Numbered from the stretch's first letter, positions 2,343 through 22,057 are shown. The stretch: 22,057 bases of DNA from a virus (IMGVR_UViG_2740892443_000002), one strand, 5' to 3'. Program-made: numbers and translations. The notes: generated by a model from the letters alone, not told the origin.

Positions 2343-2374
2343 TTCGATTCTGAAATACATCAGAGGCATTGACC

Positions 2375-2884: not shown

Positions 2885-2891
2885 GGTGCTT

Positions 2892-3397: not shown

Positions 3398-3464
3398 CCA
3401 ACTAATGAAATTAATGGCGTAAACCCGCCGAGCATCCCTTTATCTAAATTCAGGAGAATTGATT

Positions 3465-3698
3465 ATGCGTAATATTGAGATCCTCACGACTAAAACCGGA
3501 TCGGATGATGCAGGGCTTAATATTTTACTGACAGTGGCTCGTCTGGAAGAACGCCGGGCAAGGGCTGAAGCAATGGCAGCTCGCCTTGATAGCCTGGCGT
3601 GTCATATCTCATCCCGTCAGCTAAACCACGTGGAAGCAGCAGAACTACTGCGTGTAACTGCTGAAGCAATCCAGAACGAAGCGCAGGAGATCCACTAA
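3465..3698 (+). CDS. Hypothetical early protein (77 aa from ATG at 3465)
   Basis: AGGAG at 3453-3457 with 7-nt spacing to ATG 3465; the ORF-track start at 3459 is a TTG. Stop overlaps the next gene start (TAATG). Confidence 0.5.
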   Translation: MRNIEILTTKTGSDDAGLNILLTVARLEERRARAEAMAARLDSLACHISSRQLNHVEAAELLRVTAEAIQNEAQEIH

Positions 3699-3925
3699 TG
3701 GCTGATGCAATGGATCTCGTACAGCAGCGCGTTGAAGAAGAACGCCAGCGCCATATTCGTGCTGCCCGTGCCAAAACACCGGGCGTGTCTCGCGTGCTTT
3801 GTATTGAATGTGAAGCGCCAATTCCGCCAGCACGACGCCGCGCCATTCCGGGAGTGCAGCTTTGCATTACCTGCCAGGAAATCGCAGAGCTGAAAGACAA
3901 ACATTACAACGGAGGTGCTGTATGA
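3698..3925 (+). CDS. TraR/DksA-family C4 zinc-finger protein (75 aa)
   Basis: C-x2-C-x17-C-x2-C (CIECEAPIPPARRRAIPGVQLCITC) in a ~75 aa protein is the TraR/DksA zinc-finger signature, common in P2-like early operons. Translationally coupled to neighbours. Confidence 0.7.
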   Translation: MADAMDLVQQRVEEERQRHIRAARAKTPGVSRVLCIECEAPIPPARRRAIPGVQLCITCQEIAELKDKHYNGGAV

Positions 3926-4779
3926 GCACCATCCTGAAATGGGCGGGAAATAAAACCGCCATTATGTCCGAACTGAAAAAACACCTTCCTGCTGGCCCGC
4001 GACTGGTTGAACCTTTCGCGGGTTCCTGTGCTGTGATGATGGAGACGGATTACCCCAGCTATCTGGTTGCGGATATTAATCCTGATTTAATCAACCTCTA
4101 TAAAAAGGTTGCCGCTGATTGTGAATCGTTTATATCTCGCGCCAGAGTTTTATTTGAGATCGCAAACAGGGAGGTGGCTTATTACAACATAAGGCAGGAG
4201 TTTAATTACTCCACTGAAATTACTGATTTCATGAAAGCGGTATATTTCCTGTATCTCAATCGTCACGGTTACCGTGGTTTATGTCGCTATAACAAGAGCG
4301 GGCATTTCAACATTCCCTACGGTAATTATAAAAATCCGTATTTCCCTGAAAAAGAAATTCGCGCATTTGCAGAAAAGGCCCAGCGAGCAACGTTTATCTG
4401 CGCCAGCTTTGATGAAACGCTGGCGATGTTGAAGGCGGGGGATGTGGTGTATTGCGATCCGCCGTATGACGGTACGTTTTCCGGCTATCACACTGACGGC
4501 TTCACTGAAGATGACCAGTATCACCTGGCATCTGTTCTTGAACATCGGTCATCAGAAGGACATCCGGTCATTGTTTCTAACAGTGACACATCCCTGATCC
4601 GTTCGCTGTATCGCAATTTTACTCACCACTACATCAAGGCAAAACGCAGCATCGGTGTGGCAGCTGGCGAGGGTAAATCAGCAACAGAAATCATTGCTGT
4701 TTCCGGGCCGCGCTGCTGGGTGGGATTTGATTATTCGCGTGGCGTGGATAGTTCTGCCGTGTACGGAGTACGTGCATGA
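3922..4779 (+). CDS. dam: DNA N6-adenine methyltransferase, Dam family (285 aa from ATG at 3922)
   Basis: N-terminal LKWAGNK and FAGSCAV (AdoMet-binding motif I region) and catalytic DPPY ([10 protein letters not shown]) motifs read in the translation. ATGA overlap with both upstream and downstream genes. Confidence 0.85.
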
Positions 4780-7190: not shown

Positions 7191-7282
7191 TTACGCGGGT
7201 TAACAATTCGTGCTCTTAATAATACCAGGCATATCAGGCTGATGAACGTAAAAAAACGTTTTACATCAGTAAGATTATTATA

Positions 7283-7302
7283 TACTGTAAATATAAACAG
7301 TG
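7283..7302. promoter_or_regulatory. LexA (SOS) box: TACTGTAAATATAAACAGTG (CTGT-N8-ACAG)
   Basis: Exact CTGT-N8-ACAG with AT-rich spacer, read at 7285-7300; overlaps a possible promoter (-35 TTTACA 7260-7265, 17-bp spacer, -10 TACTGT 7283-7288) about 45 bp upstream of the ORF at 7344. Confidence 0.6.
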
Positions 7303-7343
7303 TTTGTGCATACAGTATTGCTTGTGGTGTCATAGGAGGAAAG

Positions 7344-7532
7344 ATGCAGGACTATTTTTTGGAGTCTTTGAAGCTCCAGCGCATTGATTTTTTTCTTAAG
7401 CTTGTAGCGGCTAGTGAGTGTAGTGATGAAGAGAAGGGGCTGGCTCTGCAGTGGGTTTCTGAATTGACTGATGAACTCATGGCAAAAATCAGAAGCCACG
7501 AATACAACCGCTCAATGGATGTCATCAGCTGA
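7344..7532 (+). CDS. Small protein (62 aa) downstream of the LexA box; possibly the 5' part of a split tum-like antirepressor gene
   Basis: ATG at 7344 preceded by AGGAGG. The longer ORF-track start at 7242 would run through the LexA box and is rejected. Relationship to 186 tum is inferred from position and from the adjacent DinI-like gene. Confidence 0.5.
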   Translation: MQDYFLESLKLQRIDFFLKLVAASECSDEEKGLALQWVSELTDELMAKIRSHEYNRSMDVIS

Positions 7533-7542
7533 GGTGACTTTT

Positions 7543-7776
7543 ATGCGCATTGAAATAATGATCGATAAAGAGCAGAAGATTAGCCAGTCTACCCTGGACG
7601 CTCTGGAGTCCGAGCTTTACCGCAACCTGCAACCCATCTATCCCAAGACAGCTATCCGCATCCGTAAAGGGTCGGCAAACGGCGTTGAGCTGAGTGGCTT
7701 AAAGCTTGATGAAGACAAAACGCGGGTGATGGAAATTATGCAGCAGGTTTGGGAAGACGACAGCTGGCTGCACTAA
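7543..7776 (+). CDS. DinI-family protein (77 aa from ATG at 7543)
   Basis: Translation MRIEIMIDKEQKISQSTLDALESELYRNLQPIYPK...DEDKTRVMEIMQQVWEDDSWL aligns along its length with remembered E. coli DinI (MRIEVTIAK...AIDALAGELSRRIQYAFPD...KEDKQRISEILQETWESADDWF). GAGGTG at 7531-7536 precedes the ATG. Confidence 0.85.
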   Translation: MRIEIMIDKEQKISQSTLDALESELYRNLQPIYPKTAIRIRKGSANGVELSGLKLDEDKTRVMEIMQQVWEDDSWLH

Positions 7777-7849
7777 GGAACGTTCCTGATGTAAGAACTT
7801 GATTCTGACGTCAGCAAGGTTGAACAACGAGAGTAGCGAGGCGTTAGCC

Positions 7850-8110
7850 ATGGGTAAAAAAGACAGTAATCACCAGATTATTTATCGGGGCCAGGTGCTG
7901 GAACGGTTTACCCCTGGCGGCTGGGTCTTCTTTCAACGCCCAAAGGAGTGTGGCGGAGGTTTTTGGTTGGGCCGCACCTATGAAGACTGCTTCTGGCTTG
8001 AGCTGGAATTCCCCGTTTCGCTATATGACGGCCTGGAGTTTTTGATGGAAGTCACCAGGGTAGAGCAGAGAAGTGATGAGGTTGACGCGAATTATTCCCT
8101 GTTTGATTAA
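7850..8110 (+). CDS. Hypothetical protein (86 aa from ATG at 7850)
   Basis: GAGG at 7838-7841 about 8 nt before ATG 7850; ORF-track start at 7799 is TTG. No recognisable family. Confidence 0.45.
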   Translation: MGKKDSNHQIIYRGQVLERFTPGGWVFFQRPKECGGGFWLGRTYEDCFWLELEFPVSLYDGLEFLMEVTRVEQRSDEVDANYSLFD

Positions 8111-8158
8111 AAATGTATTAGCTTATAATGGAATACTATTTTTGCAGGTGGGGGCGCA

Positions 8159-8770
8159 ATGGATTTAGTCTTTAAAATTCTGGCTTCGTTGGGTGGGGTG
8201 TCTTTTGTTGCATCTGGCATATTTGTTTGGATCGGGAAAGTTTATTTAGAAAGATATAAGTCGCGGCTAAACAAAGATATTGCTGAATTTCAATCACAAC
8301 TGAGTGCAACTAATGAAAGAATAAAGGCTAAGTTAGACAATTCTGTTTATGTAACGAAAGCGTATTTTGATAAGGAGTTATCAGCATATAGTCTCATTTG
8401 GAATTCGATGTTTGAAACCAGAGAAAGCGTGCTTAAGCTGAGGCCTGCGCTGGATCATTTTGACCCCAACGAACCATTTGAAGAGAGAAAATTTAGAAGG
8501 TTGAAAGTTTTTTTCGATGCATTTAATACTTTTGTTACAAGTGTTGAGTCTAACAAACCGTTCATCTCACCAGAGGTTTATATAATCTTGGACCGTTTCC
8601 GGAAGGAATGCTTTTCAGAGTCAATATCGTTTCAGCATGGCGATCCAGAATTTGACTGGCAAAATTATTGGAAAGAGGCAGAGTTGAATCGTACAACCAT
8701 CATCAAGCTTTTTGATGAGACGTGTGATGCAATTCGAGACAGGATGCACACATTAACTGTGGTTACGTAG
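8159..8770 (+). CDS. Membrane-anchored protein (203 aa): one N-terminal transmembrane helix, coiled-coil-like segment, C-terminal domain of unknown function; cargo gene, candidate defence function
   Basis: Hydrophobic stretch ILASLGGVSFVASGIFVWIG near the N-terminus; AT-rich codon usage unlike the flanking prophage genes; own -10 TATAAT at 8124-8129 and a downstream hairpin terminator at 8862-8889. Confidence 0.7.
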   Translation: MDLVFKILASLGGVSFVASGIFVWIGKVYLERYKSRLNKDIAEFQSQLSATNERIKAKLDNSVYVTKAYFDKELSAYSLIWNSMFETRESVLKLRPALDHFDPNEPFEERKFRRLKVFFDAFNTFVTSVESNKPFISPEVYIILDRFRKECFSESISFQHGDPEFDWQNYWKEAELNRTTIIKLFDETCDAIRDRMHTLTVVT

Positions 8771-8861
8771 TTTTCCAAAAAGTCTCGATGCCCGCTTTGG
8801 CGATTGTGCATGTCTATGCCGCATGAATCCGCATGATCGTTTGAGGATCGTTTTAGCTGAG

Positions 8862-8889
8862 GCCCGCTAGGAATGGCGGGCTTTTGCTT
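8862..8889 (+). terminator. Intrinsic terminator candidate: GCCCGC-TAGGAATG-GCGGGC followed by TTTTGCTT
   Basis: 6-bp GC stem (8862-8867 / 8876-8881), 8-nt loop, T-rich tail 8882-8889; lies about 90 nt downstream of the 8159-8770 gene. Confidence 0.45.
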
Positions 8890-8930
8890 ATGTCATGCAG
8901 ACGCATGAAAACCACTACATAAAGCGGGCA

Positions 8931-8949
8931 GGCGTGGCGGGGATACGAG
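8931..8949 (+). other. cos-like site: GGCGTGGCGGGGATACGAG, resembling the 19-nt cohesive end of P2/186
   Basis: First 13 nt match the remembered 186 cos end GGCGTGGCGGGGA(AAGCAT), and the following GCGCGCT also parallels the remembered P2 left end. Orientation points toward Q as in P2. Remembered sequences are unverified. Confidence 0.45.
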
Positions 8950-9059
8950 CGCGCGCTCATGGTTGAATTAATGAAATTATGGTGTTAAATAGGCTAGCTT
9001 TTTAAGTCGTGAATATTCAATTTTTCAACTCATTTTTTTCATAGGGAGGAGTAATTGAC

Positions 9060-9758
9060 ATGGTTATGTTAGTGGATGACTGTCCACGATGTGGATCACA
9101 AAAAATAGCGTTTGATGTTAATGGGCTGAATTGCACTAGGGTTTACAATGCATTGGGCGGGGGTAAAACATACGAGTACGAGGTCTATTGTGTTTGCCGA
9201 GAGTGTCATAAAACGACAATGTTTCTTTGCAGACCTTTAACGAAAAATAAAACTTTAGATGGCTATAATTGGGAAAGTGGAATATTCGGCTTAAAGGAAG
9301 TTGCAGAGGTTGTTAGGCCTATATCACCGGCAGACTTAGCAGTAGAGGAGCCACCAGAGTTCTTACCTGAGCATATCAATAGTGCATATGAGGAAGGGGC
9401 GAAATGTTTGGCTATAGGTTGTTATAATGCAGCAGCAACCATGTTTAGGCTTTGCCTTGATTATGCCACAAAAGGACTTCTTCCTGATGGGGAGCAAGGG
9501 CCTGCGCAAAAAATAAGGAGAAGCCTAGGGTTAAGAATGGAGTGGTTATTTGATAATCATCTACTGCCTGAAGCTTTAAGGGAACTAGCTGAATGCGTTA
9601 AAGATGACGGAAATGATGGAGCGCATGAAGGTATTTTGGATAAAGCTGCTGCTGAGGATCTTGAAGATTTTACCTATCTTTTTTTAGAACGGCTTTACAC
9701 TGAACCTCAACGCCTTATCGAAGCCAAGACAAGGCGTGAACAAAGAAGAAACAAATAA
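9060..9758 (+). CDS. Zinc-ribbon protein with DUF4145/HEPN-like C-terminal domain (232 aa); cargo gene between cos and portal, candidate defence/abortive-infection effector
   Basis: N-terminal CPRCG...CVCRECH (C4 ribbon); C-terminal helical region ending ...LRELAECVKDDGNDGAHEG... resembles the GN-x-AH core that I recall for DUF4145. GGGAGGAG precedes the ATG; candidate promoter -35 TTGAAT 8963-8968 with TG-extended -10 TAAATA 8986-8991. AT-rich. Stop is 8 bp from the convergent Q stop. Confidence 0.7.
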   Translation: MVMLVDDCPRCGSQKIAFDVNGLNCTRVYNALGGGKTYEYEVYCVCRECHKTTMFLCRPLTKNKTLDGYNWESGIFGLKEVAEVVRPISPADLAVEEPPEFLPEHINSAYEEGAKCLAIGCYNAAATMFRLCLDYATKGLLPDGEQGPAQKIRRSLGLRMEWLFDNHLLPEALRELAECVKDDGNDGAHEGILDKAAAEDLEDFTYLFLERLYTEPQRLIEAKTRREQRRNK

Positions 9759-9766
9759 GTTCGGAA

Positions 9767-10801
9767 TTATTCTTCTGAAAGAATATAGGGCGTAAATTTA
9801 ATCACTTCTTCGCCCAGCCAGTCGTTCAGCTCTTGTAGCCTTTTTTGCAAGGGCGTTAATTCATTACGTACAAATACGCGACTGGCCTTCTCCACATCCC
9901 CAAACCCCCCGACATTATTAGGCATTATCCCCATCATTTGTGGCGGCACACGATGCGCCGCCATCATGTCGTCCCGGCTCACGTTCTTGATATTCAGGAA
10001 CTCATCCTTCGCCGCCACTTCTGACAACGGGATAATCTGAAGCCCGTCCTTTTTACCGTTAGGCGAGTACATAAACAGGTTACGGAAGTTACCAGGACCT
10101 TTGGCGCTTTTCATCGCATTGCGGAGGTTGTTCACATCTTCCTGGTTCTGCGCTGCATCGGTCATGTACATGATGAAGCCTGCATGACTGCCGTTAATGT
10201 AATACTTGCGGCGGAACAGCGTGGCGGACTCGTTGAGCAGAGCTGACGGAATGGCAGAAAGATAACCAGGCAGGCCGTAGATCTCCTGGTTGATGTCCGG
10301 TTCCATCAGATGAAAAATGTTGCATTTCGTGAACTGATACGGCTGCGTAGTCATGCCGTATTGCACAAACCAGTAGGTATCAAGGTCTAACCCGCGTCGG
10401 GTGTATTTTGCCAGTGCAGGCTCAAGGGCGATAACTTCACCGAAGCGGTTCGTGCGTTTCTCCAGGTAGGCGTTACCAAAAACCAGATAGTCCTGTACAA
10501 AACGCGAAAAAGCCTGCTGGCTGAGCAGCGGGTGAGGGATGTAGGTGCTGGTCAGAATGTTGCACTTCACTGCAATCGGTGAGCTGTGATGCACGGCGGC
10601 GCGGAAGGTTCGCGCCAGTCCGTCGAAACTCACAGGCGGCTCGTACCAACGATCCATCTGTACGCATTCCACATAGTCCAGCAGTTCGCGGCGGTCCAGA
10701 ACAGGAACGGGATCACCGAAGCTGAATGCTTCGGCTGAAGTCTGGCTTTTATGCTGGATCTGTTTCGTCGACGCAGCGCGGTTCTTCTTACTCTTTCCCA
10801 T
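9767..10801 (-). CDS. Q: Portal protein, P2 gpQ family (344 aa from ATG at 10799-10801)
   Basis: Size identical to P2 Q (344 aa), position and orientation next to cos and the large terminase gene as in P2; start overlaps the P stop (TGATG). Confidence 0.85.
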   Translation of the reverse strand: MGKSKKNRAASTKQIQHKSQTSAEAFSFGDPVPVLDRRELLDYVECVQMDRWYEPPVSFDGLARTFRAAVHHSSPIAVKCNILTSTYIPHPLLSQQAFSRFVQDYLVFGNAYLEKRTNRFGEVIALEPALAKYTRRGLDLDTYWFVQYGMTTQPYQFTKCNIFHLMEPDINQEIYGLPGYLSAIPSALLNESATLFRRKYYINGSHAGFIMYMTDAAQNQEDVNNLRNAMKSAKGPGNFRNLFMYSPNGKKDGLQIIPLSEVAAKDEFLNIKNVSRDDMMAAHRVPPQMMGIMPNNVGGFGDVEKASRVFVRNELTPLQKRLQELNDWLGEEVIKFTPYILSEE

Positions 10802-12567
10802 CAAAAAATCTCCACAATATTGCTGGTATTGGCGGACTCGCCCTGCAGCGGTTCGTTAAACAGTGCGTGCATTGTTGCCCAGGCCAGATCGGCATGGCTG
10901 GCTTCTTCGCTGCGGCTGGCTTCATAGGTCGGGCGGTTGCCACTGGCAGTGGTAGCGCGACGGATTGCCATAAATGACTGCGCAATGTCGGTGTGCCCGG
11001 CGTCAAACTCCAGACGGCGGTGGCTGATAATGTCGTAGGCCTTGAGTACCAGGGCGTTTTTAACGTTGGGGTTATAGACAAACTCCCTGACGGCAGGAAA
11101 AAACGCTTTCACGTTCTCGTAAACCCCGTGACCGACGCCGGTCGAGTCGATACCGATATAGGTCACGTTATACTGTTCGGTCAGTTTTTTGATGGCGTCA
11201 GCCTGGGCGCGGAAGTCCATCCCGCGCCACTGGTGACGCTCAAGAATGCGGAACTTACCACCCGGCACGGCTGGCGGAGCCACCACCACGCATCCGGCAC
11301 TGTCGCCGTTCTGCGTACCTTTTGCCGGGTCATAACCGATCCACACTTCGCGCCAGCCAAACGGGCGCAGGGCCAGTGCATGAAAGTCGGTCCAGACTTC
11401 CCAGCTGTCCACCATGCACGCCTGCAGTTCGCTGAGCGGGAACACGGACGCGAGATCGTCCACGAACTCGCACATCAGCAGGTTCTGGTATTCGTCCGGG
11501 CTGTACTCCATGCGCAGCTGGTCGAGGTCGAACAGGTTACAGCCGCCGCGCACCGCATCTTCCACGGTGACTATCTGGCGGTATTGCCCGTCTGCGCACA
11601 GTAGGCCGGGGGCCAGATTGCTGTGGGACAGGTCGATGTCCACCTTGTCAGCTTTGTTGCGTCCACGGTTGAACAGCGCACCGGACCAGAACGGATAAGC
11701 ACTGTGGGTCAGGCTGGATGGCGTGGAAAAATAGGTTTGTCGCCATTTCTTGTGAATAGCCATACCGGAAGCCACTTTGCGCAACTCCTGGAATTTCGGT
11801 ATCCAGAAATATTCATCCAGATACAGGTTGCCGTGGTAACTCTGCGCCGTGCGGGCATTGGTGCCGAGGAAGTAAAGCGTGGCCCCGTTAGGAAGCACCA
11901 TCGGATCGCCTTTCAGCTCCACCTCGACTTCTTTGGCGAAGTCGATGATGTACTGCTTAAAGACGTGAGCCTGTGCCTTACTGGCAGAAAGGAAAATCTG
12001 GTTACGTCCGGTAAGCAGGGCGTCAATCAGGGCTTCACGGGCAAAGTAAAAGGTCGCGCCGATCTGGCGTGACTTCAGCAGGTTGCGGATGCGGTTGGTT
12101 TTTCCGGCTTCCCACCAGTGGCGCTGGTAGTTGAACATGGAGGAATGGAAGATTTCTTCCAGTTTCTCTATCTGTTCATCGGTGAAAACATTCTTTTCCG
12201 GCTGACGGCGCGGGCCTTTGTTGCGGTTGGCGACGTTAGGGTTTAAGTCGGCTTCGTTACCGCCATTGTTAAACTTGCCGATCCGCGCGTGGCGCTCCGA
12301 CTGGCGCGCCAGCAGGTCAATTTCTTTGAAATCTTTCCCTTCTTTGTGCTCCTTCATAATGAGCTGGCAGTAACGTGCGGCGGTGGTGAGCTGCATCTGA
12401 TCCAGCGGCCCATAGTCACCCCACTTGTCGCGTTTCTTCCAGCTGTGAACGGTTGCAACTTTCTCGCCCAGCATTTCAGCAATGCGGGCTACGCGGTATC
12501 CCTGAAAGTACAGCAGCATGGCCTGCCGACGGGGATCGAGATCTGCGGGTGTCAGTGTGGTGTTCAT
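10801..12567 (-). CDS. P: Terminase large (ATPase) subunit, P2 gpP family (588 aa)
   Basis: Size (P2 P is ~590 aa) and position, co-oriented with Q and divergent from O, as in the P2 packaging module. Confidence 0.85.
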   Translation of the reverse strand: MNTTLTPADLDPRRQAMLLYFQGYRVARIAEMLGEKVATVHSWKKRDKWGDYGPLDQMQLTTAARYCQLIMKEHKEGKDFKEIDLLARQSERHARIGKFNNGGNEADLNPNVANRNKGPRRQPEKNVFTDEQIEKLEEIFHSSMFNYQRHWWEAGKTNRIRNLLKSRQIGATFYFAREALIDALLTGRNQIFLSASKAQAHVFKQYIIDFAKEVEVELKGDPMVLPNGATLYFLGTNARTAQSYHGNLYLDEYFWIPKFQELRKVASGMAIHKKWRQTYFSTPSSLTHSAYPFWSGALFNRGRNKADKVDIDLSHSNLAPGLLCADGQYRQIVTVEDAVRGGCNLFDLDQLRMEYSPDEYQNLLMCEFVDDLASVFPLSELQACMVDSWEVWTDFHALALRPFGWREVWIGYDPAKGTQNGDSAGCVVVAPPAVPGGKFRILERHQWRGMDFRAQADAIKKLTEQYNVTYIGIDSTGVGHGVYENVKAFFPAVREFVYNPNVKNALVLKAYDIISHRRLEFDAGHTDIAQSFMAIRRATTASGNRPTYEASRSEEASHADLAWATMHALFNEPLQGESANTSNIVEIF

Positions 12568-12613
12568 GGCACAAACCTACAGCCTTGAATGAAGGCTTTC
12601 CCCGCCTGCGGTT

Positions 12614-12631
12614 TGTGTGGTTGTCGGTACA
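12614..12631 (+). promoter_or_regulatory. TGT-N12-ACA dyad in the P-O divergent intergenic region; candidate Ogr/B-dependent late-promoter activator site
   Basis: TGTGTGGTTGTCGGTACA read at 12614-12631; P2-family late promoters carry a TGT-N12-ACA element about 55 bp upstream of the start site, which here would place a rightward start roughly 30 nt before the O ATG. Confidence 0.4.
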
Positions 12632-12709
12632 AATACCGCGCATTGTTTCACTGCCCCCATCACCGCAACCATAAGGCTCCAGTAAGTTATTTCTAACGGA
12701 GCACGGCTC

Positions 12710-13543
12710 ATGACAGTGAAAGCAAAGCGTTTTCGCATCGGGGTGGAAGGTGCCACCACCGACGGACGCGAAATCCAGCGTGAATGGCTGGAACAGATGG
12801 CAGCCAGCTACAACCCGGCGGTGTATACCGCGCTGATTAACCTTGAGCACATCAAGTCTTATCTCCCGGACAGCACCTTTAACCGTTACGGCAAGGTGAC
12901 GGCGCTGTTTGCTGAAGAAATCACGGAAGGCCCGCTGGCAGGCAAGATGGCGCTGTATGCCGGCGTTGAGCCAACGGAGTCCCTGGTGGAATTGGTGAAA
13001 AAAGGCCAGAAATTATTCACCTCTATGGAAGTCAGCCCGAAGTTTGCTGATACGGGCAAAGCCTACCTGGTCGGCCTGGCTGCCACTGATGACCCTGCCA
13101 GTCTGGGCACTGAAATGCTGACATTCAGCGCCAGTGCAGCCCATAACCCGCTGGCAAACCGCAAGCAGAATCCTGCCAATCTCTTTACCGCTGCAGAGGA
13201 AACGGTGATCGAACTGGAAGAAATCCAGGACGACAAACCGTCCCTGTTTGCCCGCGTCACGGCGCTGTTTACCAAAAAAGAGCAGTCCGATGACGCCCGG
13301 TTCTCTGATGTGCATAAGGCCGTGGAGCTGGTCGCCACTGAGCAGCAGAACCTGAGCGCACGCACCGAAAAATCCCTGTCTGAGCAGGAAGAACGCCTGT
13401 CTGAGCTGGAGACTGCCTTGCAGGCACAGCAAACCGCCTTTAACGAACTGGTGGACAAGCTGAGTCATGAAGACAGCCGCCAGGACTACCGCCAGCGTGC
13501 AACAGGCGGTAACGCCCCCGCTGACACTCTGACCAATTGCTGA
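12710..13543 (+). CDS. O: Capsid scaffolding protein, P2 gpO family (277 aa)
   Basis: Position and size (P2 O ~284 aa) immediately before the major capsid gene; acidic, alanine-rich, coiled-coil-like C-terminal half typical of scaffold proteins. Confidence 0.8.
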   Translation: MTVKAKRFRIGVEGATTDGREIQREWLEQMAASYNPAVYTALINLEHIKSYLPDSTFNRYGKVTALFAEEITEGPLAGKMALYAGVEPTESLVELVKKGQKLFTSMEVSPKFADTGKAYLVGLAATDDPASLGTEMLTFSASAAHNPLANRKQNPANLFTAAEETVIELEEIQDDKPSLFARVTALFTKKEQSDDARFSDVHKAVELVATEQQNLSARTEKSLSEQEERLSELETALQAQQTAFNELVDKLSHEDSRQDYRQRATGGNAPADTLTNC

Positions 13544-13559
13544 TGGAGCACAAAACCCG

Positions 13560-14618
13560 ATGAAGAAGAATACCCGCTTTGCTTTTAACGCTTACCTGCA
13601 GCAGCTGGCGCGTCTGAACGGTGTGGCAGTTGAAGAACTGTCCAGCAAGTTCACCGTGGAGCCGTCTGTACAGCAGACGCTGGAAGACCAGATCCAGCAG
13701 TCCGCCGCTTTCCTGACGCTGATTAACGTCACGCCAGTGACTGAGCAGTCTGGGCAGTTGCTGGGGCTGGGGGTTGGCAGCACCATTGCCGGAACCACTG
13801 ATACCACCGCAAAAGAGCGTGAGCCTGTCGATCCGACGCTGATGGTCGATGTGGAATACAAATGCGAACAGACCAACTTTGACACGGTGCTGACCTACGC
13901 GAAGCTGGACCTGTGGGCGAAGTTTCAGGATTTCCAGGTGCGTATCCGTAACGCCATCGTGAAACGTCAGGCACTGGACCGCATCATGATCGGCTTTAAC
14001 GGCGTGAAGCGTGCGAAAACCTCCAACCGTAGCGAAAACCCGCTGCTGCAGGATGTGAACAAAGGCTGGCTGCAGAAAATCCGTGAGGATGCACCGGATC
14101 ACGTCATGGGCAGCACCACCACGGGCGGTGAAACCACACCGGGCGCGGTGAAAGTCGGGAAAGGTGGCGAATATGCCAACCTGGACGCCGTAGTGATGGA
14201 TGCCGTCAATGAGCTTATCGATGTGGTCTACCAGGACGATGACGATCTGGTGGTGATTTGCGGTCGTGAACTGCTGTCTGACAAGTATTTCCCGCTGGTC
14301 AACAAAGAGCAGGAAAACAGTGAAAAACTGGCTGCCGATATGATCATCAGTCAGAAACGCATGGGTGGCCTGCAGGCGGTGCGTGCGCCGTTCTTCCCGC
14401 CGAATGCGCTGCTGATCACCCGTCTGGATAACCTGTCCATCTACTGGCAGGAAGATACCCGCCGCCGTTCAGTTATCGACAACCCGAAACGTGACCGGAT
14501 TGAAAATTTTGAATCCGTTAACGAAGCCTATGTGGTTGAGGACTATCGCTGCGCTGCACTGGTGGAAAACATCCAGATTGGTGACTTCAGCGCCGCCGCA
14601 GCAGAAACCGGAGCGTAA
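13560..14618 (+). CDS. N: Major capsid protein, P2 gpN family (352 aa)
   Basis: Translation MKKNTRFAFNAYLQQLARLNGVAVEELSSKFTVEPSVQQTLEDQIQQSAAFLTLINVTPV... matches the pattern of remembered P2 gpN (M..ETRFKFNAYLSRVAELNGIDAGDVSKKFTVEPSVTQTL...); size fits. Confidence 0.9.
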   Translation: MKKNTRFAFNAYLQQLARLNGVAVEELSSKFTVEPSVQQTLEDQIQQSAAFLTLINVTPVTEQSGQLLGLGVGSTIAGTTDTTAKEREPVDPTLMVDVEYKCEQTNFDTVLTYAKLDLWAKFQDFQVRIRNAIVKRQALDRIMIGFNGVKRAKTSNRSENPLLQDVNKGWLQKIREDAPDHVMGSTTTGGETTPGAVKVGKGGEYANLDAVVMDAVNELIDVVYQDDDDLVVICGRELLSDKYFPLVNKEQENSEKLAADMIISQKRMGGLQAVRAPFFPPNALLITRLDNLSIYWQEDTRRRSVIDNPKRDRIENFESVNEAYVVEDYRCAALVENIQIGDFSAAAAETGA

Positions 14619-14621
14619 TTC

Positions 14622-15272
14622 ATGAGCCTGAGTCCCGCACGGCAGCATCGCCTGCGCGTTCAGGCTGAACAGGCCGCTCGCGAGGGTGGCAGTGTTCGCC
14701 ACGCGTCGGGCTATGACCTGATGCTGCTGCAACTGGCGGAAGACCGTCGCCGTCTCAAGGGCGTTCAGTCCACGGTAAAAAAAGCGGAAATCAAGGTGGA
14801 GCTGCTGCCGAAATATGCTGCCTGGGCGGAGGGCGTTCTGGCTGCCGGAGGCGCTCAACAGGATGACGTGCTGATGTACGTGATGCTGTGGCGCATTGAT
14901 GCCGGAGATTATGCCGGGGCGCTGGAGATCGGGCGTCATGCCCTGCGTCATGGCTGGGTGATGCCGCTGGGTAACCGCAACGTGCAGACCGTGCTGGCAG
15001 AGGAAATGGCAGACGCGGCGCAGAGCGCAATGCTTGCCGCCACCGGCTTTGATGCCGATCTGTTGCTGCAGACGCTGGAGCTGACAGACGGTCTGGATAT
15101 GCCGGACCAGTCACGGGCGCGTCTGCATAAAGCGATTGGCGCTGTCCTGTGTGAAAGCAACCCGGCTTCCGCCCTTAATCATCTCAACCATGCGTTACAG
15201 CTCGATCCCCGCTGTGGCGTGAAAAAAGACAAACAGCAGCTGGAGCGCAGACTGCGCAATGACAGCCGCTGA
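14622..15272 (+). CDS. M: Terminase small/endonuclease subunit, P2 gpM family (216 aa)
   Basis: Position directly after N and size class fit P2 gene M; start 3 nt after the N stop. Confidence 0.75.
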   Translation: MSLSPARQHRLRVQAEQAAREGGSVRHASGYDLMLLQLAEDRRRLKGVQSTVKKAEIKVELLPKYAAWAEGVLAAGGAQQDDVLMYVMLWRIDAGDYAGALEIGRHALRHGWVMPLGNRNVQTVLAEEMADAAQSAMLAATGFDADLLLQTLELTDGLDMPDQSRARLHKAIGAVLCESNPASALNHLNHALQLDPRCGVKKDKQQLERRLRNDSR

Positions 15273-15367
15273 CAGAACGTGCCCCCGCGCACGGGCGGCA
15301 CGGGGTGGCGAAAGGCACTGCCACATCAACACCCCGTCCACCGCCCTCTATTTCAGGAGAAAGCAGC

Positions 15368-16867
15368 ATGAAGTTTGTTGCGCCAGAACAGGCACCGGAA
15401 CAGGCGGAAATCATCAGAAACACGCCGTTCTGGCCTGATGTGGACCTGTCGGAGTTTCGCAGTGTCATGCGCACTGACGGCACGGTGACGCAGCCGCGTT
15501 TAAAGCAGGTTGCGCTGGCTGCAGTGCTGGGGCCGCTGGCAGTGATCCGTCTGGGATTCTCTGTGCTGGGTATCAAAACGTTATCTTCCGTTACGGCAGC
15601 AGTAACTCGAACCAGCAGCGCGTTGTCCTGGCTGGCTGGCGCACCACTGGCACTGCTGCGACGCGGGCTTGCTTCATCGGGCAACGCCGCAGGTTTACTT
15701 ACTGCGCCGTTGTCGTCTTTGCGCCGCACGGCATCACTGACGGGAAATGTCCTGAAAACTGTAGCAGGTGCGCCGGTTGCACTTTTGCGGTCTGGATTAT
15801 CCGGTTTACGTGCTGTTGCTGTGATGTTTATGAATCCTCTGGCGGTACTGCGCGGTGGACTGGCCGCCGCAGGCACGGTGCTGCGAGTACTGGCATCTGG
15901 TCCACTGGCGATGCTGCGCGTTGCCCTGTATGCCATATCTGGTCTGTTAGGTGCTCTGCTCAGTCCGATAGGTCTTGTGGTTACTGCACTGGCGGGCGTG
16001 GCGCTGGTTGTCTGGAAATACTGGCAACCCATCACCGCATTTCTCGGTGGCGTGGTGGAAGGATTCAAAGCGGCGGCAGGTCCCATCAGTGCAGCGTTCG
16101 AACCGCTTAAGCCCGTGTTCCAGTGGATTGGCGACAAAGTGCAGGCGCTGTGGGGCTGGTTTACTGATCTGCTGACGCCCGTTAAGTCGACCTCTGCCGA
16201 ACTGCAGAGCGCAGCGGCAATGGGGCGGCGATTCGGGGAGGCACTGGCGGAAGGGCTGAATATGGTCATGCATCCGCTGGACTCCCTGAAATCCGGCGTT
16301 TCCTGGTTGCTGGAGAAGCTCGGCATTGTCAGTAAAGAGGCCGCAAAGGCAAAACTGCCGGAAAGCGTGACGCGTCAGCAACCTGCGACGGTGAATGCAG
16401 ACGGTAAAGTGATGATGCCATCGGGTGGTTTTCCATCATGGGGATATGGCTTTGCGGGGATGTATGACAGCGGCGGGTATATCCCGCGCGGGCAGTTTGG
16501 CATCGTCGGTGAAAACGGGCCGGAAATTGTTAACGGCCCGGCAAATGTGACCAGCCGGAGAAATACAGCTGCACTGGCTGCCGTTGTTGCCGGAATGATG
16601 GGCGTTGCTGCCGCGCCAGCAGAGCTTCCACCGTTGCACCCTTTGGCACTTCCCGCGAAAGGTGGAGAAGCAATTGTGAGTCGCGCAGCCACTGTGCCGC
16701 TCGTTCAACGGATTGAGGCACCGACGCAGATCATCATTCAGACGCAGCCAGGACAAAGTGCGCAGGATATTGCGCGGGAGGTGGCACGCCAGCTTGATGA
16801 ACGTGAACGCAGGCTGAAGGCAAAAGCCAGGAGTAACTACAGCGATCAGGGGGGATACGACGCATGA
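15368..16867 (+). pseudogene. In-frame deletion remnant: 5' end of a head-completion (gpL-position) gene fused to the C-terminal part of a tail tape-measure (gpT-like) gene; 499 aa ORF
   Basis: ATG at 15368 with AGGAG at 15355-15359. N-terminal ~45 aa (MKFVAPEQAPEQAEIIRNTPFWPDVDLSEF...) is unlike what follows, which is Ala/Leu/Gly-rich repetitive sequence with a C-terminal ...GYIPRGQFGIVGENGPEIV... segment typical of tape-measure proteins. The ORF sits between M and U, where P2 has about 20 genes (L through T). Confidence 0.6.
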
Positions 16868-17349
16868 TGATGGTGCTGGGATTGTACGTGTTTATGCTGC
16901 GCACCGTTCCGTATCAGGAACTGCAGTATCAACGCAGCTGGCGACATGCGGCAAACAGTCGGGTAAACCGACGTCCGTCCACGCAGTTTCTGGGACCGGA
17001 AAACGACATGCTGACGCTTTCCGGTGTTCTTATGCCGGAAATAACAGGCGGCAGGCTGTCGTTGCTGGCACTGGAGCAGATGGCAGAACAGGGGAAAGCA
17101 TGGCCCCTGATTGAAGGCAGCGGCACGATTTACGGCATGTATGTGATTGAGGGACTGAATCAGACTAAAACGGAGTTTTTCCGCGACGGTATGCCGCGCC
17201 GGATTGAGTTCACCCTGTCGCTCAAACGAGTGGATGAATCCCTGTCCGATATGTTCGGTGATCTCAGTGCGCAACTGAATAATCTGCAGGACACGGCAAC
17301 GTCTGCCTTAAGCGATATCAGTAAAACGGTGGGAGGGCTGCTGTCGTGA
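16864..17349 (+). CDS. U: Tail protein, P2 gpU family (161 aa)
   Basis: Translation MMMVLGLYVFMLRTVPYQELQ...FLGPENDMLTLSGVLMPEITGG... resembles remembered P2 gpU (MMLALGMFVF...TLPYQ...FLG...ITLAGVLYPELTGG); ATGA overlap with upstream ORF. Confidence 0.8.
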   Translation: MMMVLGLYVFMLRTVPYQELQYQRSWRHAANSRVNRRPSTQFLGPENDMLTLSGVLMPEITGGRLSLLALEQMAEQGKAWPLIEGSGTIYGMYVIEGLNQTKTEFFRDGMPRRIEFTLSLKRVDESLSDMFGDLSAQLNNLQDTATSALSDISKTVGGLLS

Positions 17350-18446
17350 ATTTCAGCTCTGAACTGCTTAACAAAGGCAACAAAACTCCCGCATTCAGCA
17401 TCAGTATTGAGGGCAGGGATATCACCACTGTGCTGGATAACCGCCTGATGAGTTTGACGCTGACGGATAACCGGGGCTTTGAAGCGGACCAGCTTGATCT
17501 GGAGCTGGATGACGCTGACGGAAAAATCGTGCTGCCGCGCCGTGGTGCGGTTATTACGCTGGCGCTGGGCTGGAAGGGGCAGCCGCTTTTCCCGAAAGGG
17601 GCATTCACAGTGGACGAGATTGAACACACTGGCGCACCGGACCGCCTGACTATCCGGGCGCGAAGTGCTGATTTTCGGGAAACGCTGAATACCCGCCGTG
17701 AAAAATCGTGGCATAAGACTACCGTCGGGGAAGTGGTGAAGGAAATAGCCGCGCGGCACAAGCTGAAGATGGCACTGGGTAAAGACCTGTCGGATAAGCC
17801 CGTGGAGCATATAGACCAGACTAATGAGAGTGACGGCAGTTTTCTGATGCGGCTGGCGCGACAGTACGGTGCCATCGCGTCGGTGAAAAATGGCAATCTG
17901 TTATTCATCCGGCAGGGGCAGGGCAAAAGCGCCACTGGTAAACCTCTGCCAGTGATCACTCTCACACGCAAGGACGGCGACAGTCACCGATTTACCCTGG
18001 CAGATCGCGGAGCCTACACGGGCGTAATTGCCAGCTGGTTGCATACCCGCGAACCTGCGAAGAAAGAAAGCACCACGGTGAAGCGTAAGCGCAGAACTAA
18101 GAAGCAGAAGAAAGAGCCAGAAGCGAAGCAGGGCGATTACCTGGTGGGTACGGATGAAAACGTGCTGGTACTTAATCGCACTTATGCCAACCGGAGCAAC
18201 GCTGAACGGGCAGCGAAAATGCAGTGGGAACGCCTGCAACGCGGCGTTGCGTCATTCTCGCTACAACTGGCGGAAGGGCGGGCAGATCTCTACACAGAAA
18301 TGCCTGTGAAGGTCAGTGGCTTTAAACAGCCGATAGATGATGCGGAATGGACCATTACGACTCTGACGCATACCGTCAGCCCGGATAACGGTTTTACGAC
18401 CAGTCTGGAGCTTGAAGTGAGGATTGATGATTTCGAAATGGAATGA
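17346..18446 (+). CDS. D: Tail protein D / late control gene D, P2 gpD family (366 aa, GTG start)
   Basis: Position between U and ogr and size class (P2 D ~387 aa); GTG start overlapping the U stop (GTGA). Confidence 0.8.
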   Translation: MNFSSELLNKGNKTPAFSISIEGRDITTVLDNRLMSLTLTDNRGFEADQLDLELDDADGKIVLPRRGAVITLALGWKGQPLFPKGAFTVDEIEHTGAPDRLTIRARSADFRETLNTRREKSWHKTTVGEVVKEIAARHKLKMALGKDLSDKPVEHIDQTNESDGSFLMRLARQYGAIASVKNGNLLFIRQGQGKSATGKPLPVITLTRKDGDSHRFTLADRGAYTGVIASWLHTREPAKKESTTVKRKRRTKKQKKEPEAKQGDYLVGTDENVLVLNRTYANRSNAERAAKMQWERLQRGVASFSLQLAEGRADLYTEMPVKVSGFKQPIDDAEWTITTLTHTVSPDNGFTTSLELEVRIDDFEME

Positions 18447-18536: not shown

Positions 18537-18755
18537 ATGATGATTTGCCCACTGTGTGGAAGTGCCGCCCATACTCGCAGCAGTTTTCAGGTATCTTCAT
18601 TGACCAAAGAGCGTTACAACCAGTGCCAGAACATTAACTGCAGCCATACTTTTGTTACCCATGAAACTTTTGTTCGTTCGATTGCAACGCCAAAAGAGTC
18701 AAATCCGGTTCAGCCGCATCCAATGAAATCAGGACAGGTGGCGCTCTCTCTTTGA
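18537..18755 (+). CDS. ogr: Late-gene transcriptional activator, Ogr/Delta/B zinc-finger family (72 aa from ATG at 18537)
   Basis: Translation MMICPLCGSAAHTRSSFQVSSLTKERYNQCQNINCSHTFVTHETF...PHPM.SGQ parallels remembered P2 Ogr (MFHCPLCQHAAHARTSRYITDTTKERYHQCQNVNCSATFITYESV...PHPLPSGQ), including the C-x2-C...C-x4-C zinc site. GGGGAGAG at 18521-18528. Confidence 0.85.
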   Translation: MMICPLCGSAAHTRSSFQVSSLTKERYNQCQNINCSHTFVTHETFVRSIATPKESNPVQPHPMKSGQVALSL

Positions 18756-18835
18756 CGCTGCCGCCATTTTGTCGCCATCGTTAAAGAATAGTGCTTCTAA
18801 CATCATGATTTTAAACAGCTTAAATTTCAGACAAC

Positions 18836-18877
18836 AAAAAACCCATCAACCTTGAACCGAAATGGCGGGGTTGATGG
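18836..18877 (-). terminator. Intrinsic terminator for ybjL (minus strand): 10-bp stem CCCATCAACC/GGTTGATGGG followed by a U-run
   Basis: Stem arms at 18841-18850 and 18868-18877; on the minus strand the hairpin is followed by TTTTT (plus 18836-18840 AAAAA). Lies ~115 nt downstream of the ybjL stop. Confidence 0.6.
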
Positions 18878-18990: not shown

Positions 18991-20676
18991 TTATCCTAAT
19001 CCTGGCCATACCATGACGATGATTGTCCCTGCCAGCGTCAGCAGGACGTTGGCGATTGCATAGGTGCCCGCATAGCCCAGCGCCGGGATGTTACTGCGAG
19101 CTGTATCACTGATGATCTCCATTGCCGGCGCGCAGGTACGTGCGCCCATCATTGCGCCGAACAACAGTGCGCGGTTCATTCGCAATACATAAGCACCGAA
19201 CAAGAAACAGATAACCACGGGCACCAGACTGACAATCAATCCGGCAATCAACATCTGACCGCCAATCGCGCCCAGGCCGTTATTAATACCGCTACCGGCG
19301 CTCAGACCAACGCCTGCCATAAACACCATCAAGCCGAACTCTTTCACCATGCTTAATGCACCTTGCGGAATGTAACCGAAGGTCGGGTGGTTAGCACGCA
19401 TAAAGCCCAGCATAATTCCGGCGAATAACAACCCGGCAGCGTTCCCCATGCCGAAACTGAATGTGCTGAACTGGAAGGTGATCATCCCGATCATCAGCCC
19501 AATAACAAAGAAGGCGCAAAATGCCAGCAGGTCAGTGACCTGGCTGTGAATCGAGATAAAGCCGATGCGATCGGCGATGGTTTTTACGCGACGGGCATCA
19601 CCGCTGACTTGTAAAACGTCACCTTTGTTAAGCACGACGTTGTCATCTATCGGCATCTCAATCTGGCTACGAATGACGCGGTTAAGGAAGCAACCGTGAT
19701 CGGTCAACTTCAGTTGTGCGAGACGTTTACCTACAGCGTTATGGTTTTTAACGACCACTTCTTCAGTGACGATACGCATGTCGAGAAGGTCACGATCGAA
19801 AACTTCTTTACCGTTACGGAAGCTGGGATCGAGTCGGGCATGGGCGTCGGGATAGCCTACCAACGCTATTTCATCGCCCATTTGTAGCACGGCATCACCG
19901 TCTGGATTTGCCAGAATCCCGTTACGTCGAATACGTTCAATGTAGCAGCCGGTTTGTCGATAAATACCCAGTTCACGCAGATTTTTGCCGTCGGTCCAGG
20001 CCACCAGCTCCGGGCCGACGCGATAGGCGCGGATCACCGGTAAATAAACCTTACGGTTGGCATCAGTGTCCAGGCCACGTTCGCGGGCGATTTGCTGGGC
20101 GCTGGTCTGTAAGTCCTGATGCTGCAATTTCGGCAAGTAACGCGCACCAACAATCAAACTCACCAGACCGATTAAATAGGTTAAGGCATACCCGAGGCTC
20201 AGATTATCCAGTGCCAGTGAGAGCTGCCTGCTTTCCATGCCGGAATGACGCAGTGTATCGCCAGCACCGACCAGAACCGGTGTCGACGTCATAGAGCCTG
20301 CTAACATACCGGCCGTCAGGCCAATATCCCAGCCAAACAGCTTACCTAACCCTAAGGCGATCACCAGCGCACTGCCAACCATCACCAGTGCTAACATTAG
20401 GTAATTTTTCCCATCGCGAAAAAAAATGGAAAAAAAGTTCGGTCCGGCTTCGACCCCGACGCAGAAAATAAACAGCATAAAGCCAAGATTAAGCGCATCG
20501 GTGTTAATGCTGAAATGTTGTTGGCCTAATAACAGCGATACGACTAAAACGCCAATGGAATTACCCAGTTGGATCGAACCAAGTCGTAACTTTCCGAGAC
20601 ATAGCCCAAGCGCGAGGACCACAAATAATAACAGAATGTAATTCCCATTTAACAATTCGGCGACGTTTATATTCAC
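18991..20676 (-). CDS. ybjL: Putative transporter YbjL (AspT/YidE/YbjL family, 561 aa)
   Basis: Translation [29 protein letters not shown]... and length 561 aa match what I recall of E. coli YbjL; multi-TM protein with central soluble domains. Confidence 0.9.
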
Positions 20677-20945
20677 GGAGGCTAACTTCTTGTTTACTAG
20701 TAAGCTGTTGAAAGAAATGGTAATTTACGATAATGTTTTTTACCAGAATTCAGGGCGCAGATTCATTCAGCGCACCTAAACGATAGTAAAGTAACAATAT
20801 ATTTTACTAGTGTAATCACATTAGGTATCAACGGCTATATGAATTGCGTTGGCCTATATTAGCATGGAATGCGAAGCGGCTTTATCTTACTGAACGCCAC
20901 ACTGGCGAAAAATGTGTTCGATAGACGCAGTGTCAGGAGGAACGA

Positions 20946-21323
20946 GTGAAACATAAACAACGTTGGGCGGGGGCAATCTGCTGTTTTGTCCTCTTCATTG
21001 TGGTGTGCCTTTTTCTGGCGACGCACATGAAAGGCGCTTTTCGGGCTGCCGGGCATCCTGAAATCGGCTTGCTATTTTTCATTCTTCCTGGAGCAGTGGC
21101 CAGCTTCTTTTCACAGCGTAGAGAAGTCCTGAAACCTCTGTTTGGCGCAATGCTGGCGGCACCCTGTTCGATGCTCATTATGCGGCTGTTTTTTTCACCG
21201 ACGCGCTCATTCTGGCAAGAGCTGGCATGGTTACTAAGCGCGGTGTTCTGGTGTGCGCTGGGGGCACTGTGTTTCTTATTTATCAGTAGTTTGTTTAAAC
21301 CACAGCACAGAAAAAATCAGTAA
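20946..21323 (+). CDS. ybjM: Inner-membrane protein YbjM (125 aa, GTG start)
   Basis: Conserved E. coli gene order ybjL-ybjM-grxA-ybjC-nfsA; 125 aa hydrophobic protein; AGGAGG at 20935-20940 before GTG 20946. Confidence 0.8.
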   Translation: MKHKQRWAGAICCFVLFIVVCLFLATHMKGAFRAAGHPEIGLLFFILPGAVASFFSQRREVLKPLFGAMLAAPCSMLIMRLFFSPTRSFWQELAWLLSAVFWCALGALCFLFISSLFKPQHRKNQ

Positions 21324-21343
21324 AGCCCTCAACGCGAGGGCTT
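21323..21343. terminator. Hairpin between convergent ybjM and grxA (AAGCCCTC-AACGC-GAGGGCTT), possible bidirectional terminator
   Basis: 8-bp stem read directly; T-run on the minus strand is a few nt from the stem (plus 21311-21316 AAAAAA), none on the plus strand, so weak. Confidence 0.35.
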
Positions 21344-21352
21344 GTCAGACGA

Positions 21353-21610
21353 TCAGGCGTCCAGATTTTCTTTCACCCATGCAGCAAAATCGGTATAGCC
21401 GCCGATATGTTGCTGATCGACAAAAATCTGCGGCACGGTTTCTACGGGTTTACCTGCCTTTTGTTGTAGATCTTCTTTAGTGATCCCTTCCGCACGAATA
21501 TCTACATACTGATACTGAAAATCATCGCGTTCATTGCTCAATTTCTCAGCCAGATCTTTTGCACGCACACAGTAAGGGCAACCCGAACGACCAAAAATAA
21601 CGGTTTGCAT
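21353..21610 (-). CDS. grxA: Glutaredoxin 1 (85 aa from ATG at 21608-21610)
   Basis: Translation MQTVIFGRSGCPYCVRAKDLAEKL... with the CPYC active site matches remembered E. coli GrxA; the ORF-track start 5 codons upstream is not used. Confidence 0.9.
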   Translation of the reverse strand: MQTVIFGRSGCPYCVRAKDLAEKLSNERDDFQYQYVDIRAEGITKEDLQQKAGKPVETVPQIFVDQQHIGGYTDFAAWVKENLDA

Positions 21611-21769
21611 TATTTCTCTCCTCATAGATTTATGCCTGTAATGATCACGCTAAAATGTATTCGCTGAAAGTAGGTTTAACCTGTTGCATTAATTGCTAAA
21701 AGCTATAACTGTTAAACACAATACAGTGAAAAGTTTTAGACTGAAGGCTCACTTTGCAGAGGGAAGCGT

Positions 21770-22057
21770 ATGCGCGCGATCGGTAAATTGCCTAAAGGCG
21801 TGTTGATACTGGAATTTATCGGAATGATGCTACTGGCGGTGGCGCTGCTGTCGGTAAGCGACTCCCTGTCGCTGCCTGAGCCATTTTCTCGGCCAGAAGT
21901 GCAGATTCTGATGATTTTTCTCGGTGTTTTGCTCATGCTTCCCGCTGCGGTGGTGGTTATTCTTCAGGTGGCAAAACGTCTTGCCCCACAGCTGATGAAC
22001 CGTCCACCGCAATATTCACGTTCAGAAAGAGAAAAAGATAATGACGCCAACCATTGA
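21770..22057 (+). CDS. ybjC: Membrane protein YbjC (95 aa; stop at 22055-22057)
   Basis: Conserved position upstream of nfsA; 95 aa with hydrophobic segments; TGA at the window end. Confidence 0.85.
   Translation: MRAIGKLPKGVLILEFIGMMLLAVALLSVSDSLSLPEPFSRPEVQILMIFLGVLLMLPAAVVVILQVAKRLAPQLMNRPPQYSRSEREKDNDANH
22041..22057 (+). CDS. nfsA: Start of nitroreductase NfsA (first 5 codons only: MTPTI...), truncated by the window end
   Basis: ATGACGCCAACCATTGA encodes MTPTI(E), matching the remembered NfsA N-terminus; overlaps the end of ybjC in another frame as in E. coli. Confidence 0.5.

Follow-up and report, generated by a model that had tools for sequence, protein, structure and literature searches.

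Gene content and location of the element

The stretch of DNA analysed here (the window; 22,057 nucleotides, virus record IMGVR_UViG_2740892443_000002) carries an integrated phage element followed by bacterial chromosome (Table 1). Its genes lie in P2-type order, with int and CI, then the early operon with gpA, then Q and P divergent from O, N, M and L, and finally T, U, D and ogr beside attR, and this order is supported by matches to the Pfam families Phage_GPA, Phage_portal, Phage_cap_P2, Phage_GPO, Phage_term_smal, Phage_GPL, Phage_P2_GpU, Phage_GPD and Ogr_Delta. In addition, the element is 95.7-97.5% identical in nucleotide sequence to Klebsiella phages 4LV2017, KP12 and related records; these two phages, at about 96-97%, are the nearest classified relatives, and the nearest intact phages are 186-like peduoviruses of Klebsiella and E. 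coli. On gene order, domain content and identity, it is assigned to the P2/186-like (Peduoviridae) prophages.

The chromosomal genes to the right of the element, the left flank of related contigs (rcdA/ybjK, ybjJ and ybjI) and the NCBI names of the matching loci identify the host as E. coli and place the prophage between rcdA (ybjK) and ybjL. The attR core corresponds to the annotated attR of 4LV2017, while attL, which is seen in contigs of the same lineage just downstream of rcdA, lies together with an 89-aa ORF about 0.46 kb to the left of the window start. The element is thus bounded by att sites at a position that intact relatives also use, since E. coli 17MR471 carries an intact prophage with a complete gene set at the same rcdA|ybjL locus. 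Both this prophage and phage 4LV2017 (NC_047818, Peduoviridae, Elveevirus) are collinear with the window at about 96-98% DNA identity outside the cargo, and they share its int, CI, CII, A, Q, P, O, N, M, L...T, U, D, ogr and att core; they differ in the cargo between A and Q and in keeping the interval from L codon 50 to T codon 577, which the window has lost.

A canonical LexA box follows directly after gpA and precedes, by about 40 nt, a 62-aa ORF and then a DinI-like gene. The tum gene of phage 186 is an antirepressor gene under LexA control, and the likeness of the two arrangements suggests that the prophage may be SOS-inducible, this region being a probable SOS-inducible antirepressor module. 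Further downstream, a 150-nt block conserved among relatives (8808-8957) contains a putative cos core, a tentative assignment with three mismatches to the P2/186 cos sequence. The region between gpA and Q (7799-9758) is variable cargo, in which a candidate defence gene sits between the putative cos and Q, and it also holds two unknown ORFs, one of 203 aa and one listed with 103 aa but called as 86 aa in related contigs. Same-locus relatives carry other cargo at this spot, including AIPR, retron St85, DarT-macro, KAP NTPase with DprA, HipA with HIRAN, ParA, and ASCH with Abi.

Table 1. Features of the window, further deletions in its lineage, and breakpoints shared by several deletions. Positions are those of the window unless stated otherwise.
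Feature	Position	Strand	Evidence or remark
Integrase, 343 aa	1-1032	-	tblastn 100% over 343 aa to 17MR471 integrase; window begins at its stop codon
186-type CI repressor, 189-190 aa	1426-1998	-	Pfam Phage_CI_repr, Phage_CI_C; 100% to CI of 17MR471 (L013)
Early operon: Apl/Cox-like, CII, Fil, DUF5347, DUF2732, TraR/DksA, Dam methylase, replication endonuclease gpA (4776-7190)	2121-7190	+	all full length; tblastn, Pfam
LexA-box-like site TACTGTAAATATAAACAGTG	7283-7302	+	only CTGT-N8-ACAG match in window, 0.2 expected by chance
62-aa ORF	7344-7532	+	downstream of LexA-box-like site
DinI-like gene	7543-7776	+	Pfam DinI match
Putative cos core GGCGTGGCGGGGATACGA	8931-8948	+	tentative
Cargo gene, DUF4145 / PD-T7-4-like candidate anti-phage protein, 232 aa	9060-9758	+	Pfam DUF4145 E=4.5e-7; PADLOC PD-T7-4 E=1.2e-6
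Q portal	9767-10804	-	full length; tblastn 96-99.8% (Q-M set)
P large terminase	10801-12567	-	full length; tblastn 96-99.8% (Q-M set)
O scaffold	12710-13543	+	full length; tblastn 96-99.8% (Q-M set)
N major capsid	13560-14618	+	full length; tblastn 96-99.8% (Q-M set)
M small terminase	14622-15272	+	full length; tblastn 96-99.8% (Q-M set)
gpL part of fusion, codons 1-48	15368-15511	+	native RBS and ATG; 100% to gpL 1-48
Deletion junction GCGCTG, codons A49 and L50	15512-15517	+	three-way alignment, blastn overlap
gpT part of fusion, T residues 577-1025 and stop	15518-16867	+	BLASTP 446/452 to T 574-1025 of L013
U	16864-17349	+	full length; tblastn 98-100% (U, D, ogr)
D	17346-18446	+	full length; tblastn 98-100% (U, D, ogr)
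ogr	18537-18755	+	full length; tblastn 98-100% (U, D, ogr); Pfam Ogr_Delta
attR core AACAAAAAACCCAT	18833-18846	+	14-nt direct repeat with site just downstream of rcdA in lineage contig L004
E. coli chromosomal flank: ybjL (-), ybjM, grxA (-), ybjC	18991-22057		RefSeq annotations of matching loci; Pfam
Secondary deletion	8766-10466 together with 11980-15165		window's lineage
Secondary deletion	2947-11764		window's lineage
Secondary deletion	2446-11768		window's lineage
Secondary deletion	5199-15166		window's lineage
Secondary deletion	11407-12257		window's lineage
Secondary deletion	12735-15150		window's lineage
Secondary deletion	7014-10356		window's lineage
Shared breakpoint in T	30475 of L013 (17MR471)		CTGGCTG^GCTGGCGC, inside (CTGG)3; CFSAN061772 (other end in holin), CP61_Sichuan (V), 2017.04.02CC (H fragment)
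Shared breakpoint in T	30432 of L013 (17MR471)		GTTA^CGGCAGCAG; 38A23CPO011 (W), VE-V11-M (P)
Shared breakpoint in M	18521 of L013 (17MR471)		GGCGC^, then G in L013, TG in window allele; LH10-b-1 (T), 38A23CPO011 (LysC)
Shared breakpoint near 3' end of M	15167-15169		three secondary deletions, window's lineage
Shared breakpoint in P	11767-11770		two secondary deletions, window's lineage

A chimeric L-T reading frame between M and U

Between M and U, the ORF listing of the window gives one uninterrupted frame that runs from a GTG at 15305 to 16867. The preferred start is the native gpL ATG at 15368, which has AGGAG upstream and yields a product of 499 aa made up of gpL residues 1-48, two residues common to both parents, and gpT residues 577-1025. 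In BLASTP comparisons with the intact prophage of 17MR471 (contig L013), the first 50 residues of the fusion agree with gpL residues 1-50 at every position, and fusion residues 48-499 match gpT residues 574-1025 at 446 of 452 positions, a resemblance that reflects homology and not coincidence. The first-pass annotation had described a continuous frame from M to just before U, D and ogr containing about 450 aa of tape-measure sequence, and both points are borne out by the ORF listing and by BLASTP to gpL and gpT, the retained T part being 449-452 aa. The start that it gave, 15273, is the first base after the M stop codon. It had further considered the opposite outcome, a native tape-measure N-terminus with tail genes elsewhere in the element; the N-terminus proved to be that of gpL, the frame falls short of the full tape-measure length (1025 aa in relatives), and none of the 18 genes listed below occurs in the window.

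The alignment to gpL and gpT of intact relatives that had been proposed, with a search for microhomology, maps the breakpoint closely. The DNA matches to relatives end on the L side at 15517 (15523 with imperfect matches) and begin on the T side at 15512 (15504-15508 with imperfect matches), so that the crossover falls within GCGCTG, a perfect 6-nt microhomology of L and T that forms the Ala49-Leu50 codons in both parent genes. An imperfect match of 13 out of 16 positions (15508-15523) surrounds it, as seen in a three-way alignment and in overlapping blastn segments. The start of L and the 95 nt of M-L intergenic DNA upstream are identical to 4LV2017. Moreover, the frames of T and L are offset by 1 and the deletion length is 1 modulo 3, and it is because these two values agree that the join is in frame.

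In Pfam, an N-terminal Phage_GPL fragment is the sole family match of the fusion protein. Hydrophobic segments are present in the gpT-derived part. The NCBI name of the protein, 'head completion/stabilization protein [Escherichia coli]', derives from the first 50 residues only, while 90% of the protein is tape measure; automated annotation thus names the chimera from its N-terminal residues.

Extent of the deletion

The segment missing from the window measures 11,446 bp by comparison with Klebsiella phage 4LV2017 and 11,462 bp by comparison with the E. coli 17MR471 prophage, which is less than the 13-14 kb estimated at first. The missing interval comprises 18 whole genes together with parts of L and T. 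In a tblastn search of the window with all proteins of the 17MR471 prophage, no trace was found of X, holin, endolysin (lysozyme), LysA-like, LysB, LysC, R, S, V, W, J, I, H, G, FI, FII, E and E', in agreement with the earlier proposal that the lysis genes and nearly all tail genes had been removed. Comparison with the intact prophage at the same locus, also suggested at that stage, shows the full L...T interval in 17MR471. The breakpoints lie inside two genes of an otherwise collinear relative and are directly joined, L codon 50 to T codon 577.

By the same search, the genes present at full length are int, CI, Apl/Cox, CII, Fil, DUF5347, DUF2732, TraR, Dam, A, the 62-aa ORF and the DinI-like gene in the left and early part, and Q, P, O, N, M, U, D and ogr in the late part, whereas L and T are truncated. 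The earlier statement that lysogeny, replication, packaging and capsid genes are kept therefore stands except for the head-completion gene L. The element lacks the complete set of virion and lysis genes of a functional phage, with 18 genes absent and two truncated, and this gene content predicts, as had been anticipated for tails and lysis, that it cannot build tails or lyse its host; nor can its heads be completed, because gpL is truncated. Capsid maturation is also predicted to be compromised, gpL itself being destroyed. The direct L-T join at a 6-nt microhomology fits the single deletion event that had been postulated; a series of nested deletions would end in an identical lone junction, so that a one-step origin is presumed.

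Distribution of the junction and continuing decay in its lineage

NCBI, ENA and Logan assemblies contain at least 24 contigs that encode exactly this 499-aa protein, among them NCBI GCA_000804325, GCA_022970775, GCA_023534065 and GCA_043181625, several Logan runs and one ENA metagenome, and on these contigs U, D, ogr and ybjL always follow. Ten carrier contigs that were fetched (L003-L012) are 99.9-100% identical to the window, and one of them, L008 (GCA_000804325.1, contig JUJY01000017), is identical to it over 16,690 bp. None of 5,426 complete RefSeq E. coli genomes has the exact junction, and searches for it in GTDB representative genomes, IMG/VR, JGI metagenomes and GenBank phages were likewise empty. 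The junction marks one modestly sampled E. coli lineage, for which the support consists of draft short-read assemblies from several independent sources. All carriers have the chimeric ORF without any change, but since they are clonal, its conservation is uninformative about selection.

The element continues to shrink within this lineage. Among the contigs with the identical junction (L003-L012), at least seven further deletions are found (Table 1), although the contig look-up favours distinct gene contexts and thereby exaggerates their variety, and in one contig an IS insertion replaces the left end of the element from int to Fil. Most of the secondary deletions take cos, portal, terminase or capsid genes. 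The ratio of deletions to SNPs in the window's clone (at least 99.9% identity) is very high.

The nfsA gene, which lies beside ybjC and downstream of the window, is often disrupted in these strains (L008, L012, L013, L014, L019, L009 and L010). L008 and L012 have it as two separate ORFs, FDN-11 has a stop codon within it, and E94 has a truncated copy beside ISVsa5; in 17MR471 an IS1 lies upstream of the gene, and in L009 and L010 an IS3-family element adjoins it. Loss of nfsA is associated with nitrofurantoin resistance.

Independent deletions at the same locus

Twelve other E. coli prophages at the same locus have independent deletions of the late region (FDN-11, CFSAN061772, LH10-b-1, NCTC9041, GF31, E94, 2017.04.02CC, CP61_Sichuan, 38A23CPO011, LR-46, VE-V11-M and HSP425). 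Their breakpoints all differ from those of the window, with left ends ranging from P to J and microhomologies of 0-6 nt. The right end lies inside T in 11 of the 12, leaving from about 420 to about 2250 nt of T among independent deletions, and at the U/D boundary in HSP425; D and ogr are kept in all 12 strains, and U in all except HSP425. Several of these deletions retain the lysis cassette, and on this ground the idea that they were driven by selection to lose lysis genes was rejected. Another apparent case of a deleted element, Klebsiella phage ST437-OXA245phi4.2 (18.3 kb), is only a record cut off where its contig ends.

Truncated tape-measure genes are also frequent in complete genomes. 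Of 5,426 complete E. coli genomes, 1,089 have a match to T, which in 125 of these (11.5%) covers less than 80% of the gene, and in an evenly spaced sample all eight truncated copies were 5' truncations that kept the 3' end and U. The FI-FII-E-E' block was matched in 1,023 complete E. coli genomes, 53 of them with partial copies, and from the two counts it follows that at least 66 genomes have part of T without the sheath and tube genes. The idea that T is uniquely targeted has to be tempered, given that partial copies amount to about 41 per kb for T vs about 24 per kb for FI-E' and that the deletion in HSP425 reaches the U/D boundary. Retention of the 3' part of T is largely expected, because left ends that yield a 5'-truncated T have about 28 kb to the left of T in which to fall, while right ends that yield a 3'-truncated T have only the approximately 2 kb between T and attR. 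This agrees with published surveys, in which incomplete prophages show preferential loss of lysis, portal, terminase and other structural genes (PMC7744054; see also PMC6379469).

The reading frame was tested at eight junctions with an upstream gene running into them: two are in frame (the window and the holin'-'T fusion of CFSAN061772) and six are out of frame. This is near the random expectation of one in three and agrees with the earlier view that the frame was kept by chance. There is no sign of selection on the chimera, and its in-frame status carries no signal.

Two further observations were made on these prophages. In CFSAN061772 (L015, 1-2512), the D and ogr genes of a second P2-like prophage lie directly upstream of the integrase, which indicates tandem polylysogeny at rcdA|ybjL, with the downstream copy having its own X-to-T deletion. 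In addition, a reverse-strand cargo gene (DUF6216 or hypothetical) is found between S and V (L019 20343-21149, L022 20839-21645, L024 20747-21901), and the deletions of E94 and HSP425 have their junction immediately beside this gene.

Recurrent breakpoints

A number of deletions have one endpoint in common, exact to the base apart from the few nucleotides of microhomology, while the other end differs (Table 1). Common descent is an unlikely source of the T breakpoint at 30475, since the three prophages that carry it are 58-96 SNPs apart over the adjacent 2.8 kb. In complete genomes, the 200-nt stretch of T that covers 30432 and 30475 contains a deletion endpoint in 23 records, compared with one for a control stretch of 200 nt, where clonal relatives were counted without collapsing.

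Several explanations for such fixed ends were considered and rejected. Stop sites for RecBCD do not fit, as the prophage has no Chi site, and hairpins do not fit either, the DNA folding z-scores being -1.2 to +1.5. One-way resection by type I-E Cas3 is disfavoured because inspection by eye revealed no fitting PAM where one would be expected, and because two of the junctions would keep PAM and protospacer. For EcoP15I and other restriction-site geometries, the cut distances misfit, again as judged by eye only.

Origin and status of the element

Taken together, it is highly probable that an internal deletion of about 11.5 kb in a P2/186-like prophage fused L to T and gave rise to a defective, decaying and vertically inherited element. 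Illegitimate recombination at short homology, through replication slippage or microhomology end-joining at GCGCTG, would have joined L codon 50 to T codon 577. The deletion took X, the lysis cassette and all tail, baseplate, fibre, sheath and tube genes but the 3' part of T, U and D, and a chance match of frames created the 499-aa chimeric ORF, which is most likely without function. What is left is a remnant with immunity, integration and replication genes, the probable SOS-inducible antirepressor module, a probable cos, and the genes for terminase, portal and capsid. As a defective prophage it is ordinary: the allele is new, while the class is frequent.

The element resembles the cryptic ('grounded') prophages of E. 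coli in its inactivation by internal deletion, its vertical inheritance, its progressive shrinkage and its retention of the att-proximal right end. The P2 remnant of E. coli K-12, for example, retains only part of D plus ogr. The element differs from these in representing an earlier stage of decay, at which the immunity, replication and head genes are intact and the L'-'T junction is still readable.

A rather different reading starts from the intact packaging genes. Capsid-forming PICIs and P4-type satellites make or use capsids while another phage supplies tails and lysis, and the element in the window could in principle do likewise, as a helper-dependent entity with its own capsids that borrows P2-like tails and lysis functions and is kept by selection. 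In its favour, the window has an intact putative cos and intact genes for terminase, portal, scaffold and capsid, another strain has P2-like prophages in tandem at this locus, and tail-gene deletions that spare capsid genes recur in other strains. However, gpL, which is required for head completion, is truncated, and at least seven different secondary deletions have stripped near-identical members of the lineage of cos, Q, P, O, N and/or M; packaging functions are thus not being preserved, which argues against upkeep as a capsid-making satellite. Other independent deletions at the locus also take M, O or P, and collections of viral contigs and phages (IMG/VR, GenBank phages) do not contain the junction. 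A satellite would form a lineage of its own in which selection conserves hijacking or packaging genes, whereas the element is a recent deletion derivative of a complete phage with head completion broken and sister isolates losing packaging genes. We therefore regard a satellite-like role as highly unlikely.

Slightly less probable again is that the in-frame L'-'T chimera has been co-opted as a new protein of benefit to host or prophage, for example as a membrane-active fragment of the tape measure. The open 499-aa frame, the hydrophobic segments of its T part and a second independent in-frame fusion, the 442-aa holin'-'T product of CFSAN061772, would fit such a role. Yet the two in-frame cases among eight are at or below the random one in three, the length of T retained varies widely among independent deletions, the upstream late operon has been lost in some members of the lineage, and Phage_GPL is the only family that the protein matches.

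It is very improbable that the junction is an artefact of assembly or of a chimeric contig, even though all carriers are draft assemblies and the complete (long-read) E. coli genomes are without it, because the same junction occurs in at least 24 contigs from different pipelines and submitters and the 6 nt of homology at the join are too few for collapse of a k-mer graph. Finally, the notion of a native short tape-measure gene in a naturally compact phage or satellite, to which the long, uninterrupted frame and the normal order of U, D and ogr after it might appeal, is refuted by the alignments and scarcely credible, given that the first 50 residues and the 95 nt upstream are the gpL start and the M-L intergenic region, that the remainder aligns only to T residues 574-1025, and that relatives at about 96-98% DNA identity hold the full 11.5 kb between the breakpoints.

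Implications

The prophage described here is a clean and fully mapped example of the passage from temperate phage to defective prophage, and is of little consequence in itself. Its unique junction is a dated marker for one E. coli lineage, and tools that score prophage completeness should not rate the element as capsid-competent, gpL being broken. The recurrent breakpoints are the only feature here that might repay further work. It is possible, but on present evidence doubtful, that the deletions are seeded at a few nucleotide-precise fragile sites and do not reflect random decay; in that case, site-specific breakage or replication arrest would be followed by one-sided resection and end joining, and abortive SOS induction of a prophage that replicates without lysing its host could plausibly be a source of deletions. 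Fragile sites of this kind, if true, would explain how a clone nearly free of SNPs came to have at least seven secondary deletions. If the recurrent breakpoints and the burst of secondary deletions in one clone were confirmed at the scale of populations, P2-like prophages could offer a natural system for the study of hotspots of illegitimate recombination.
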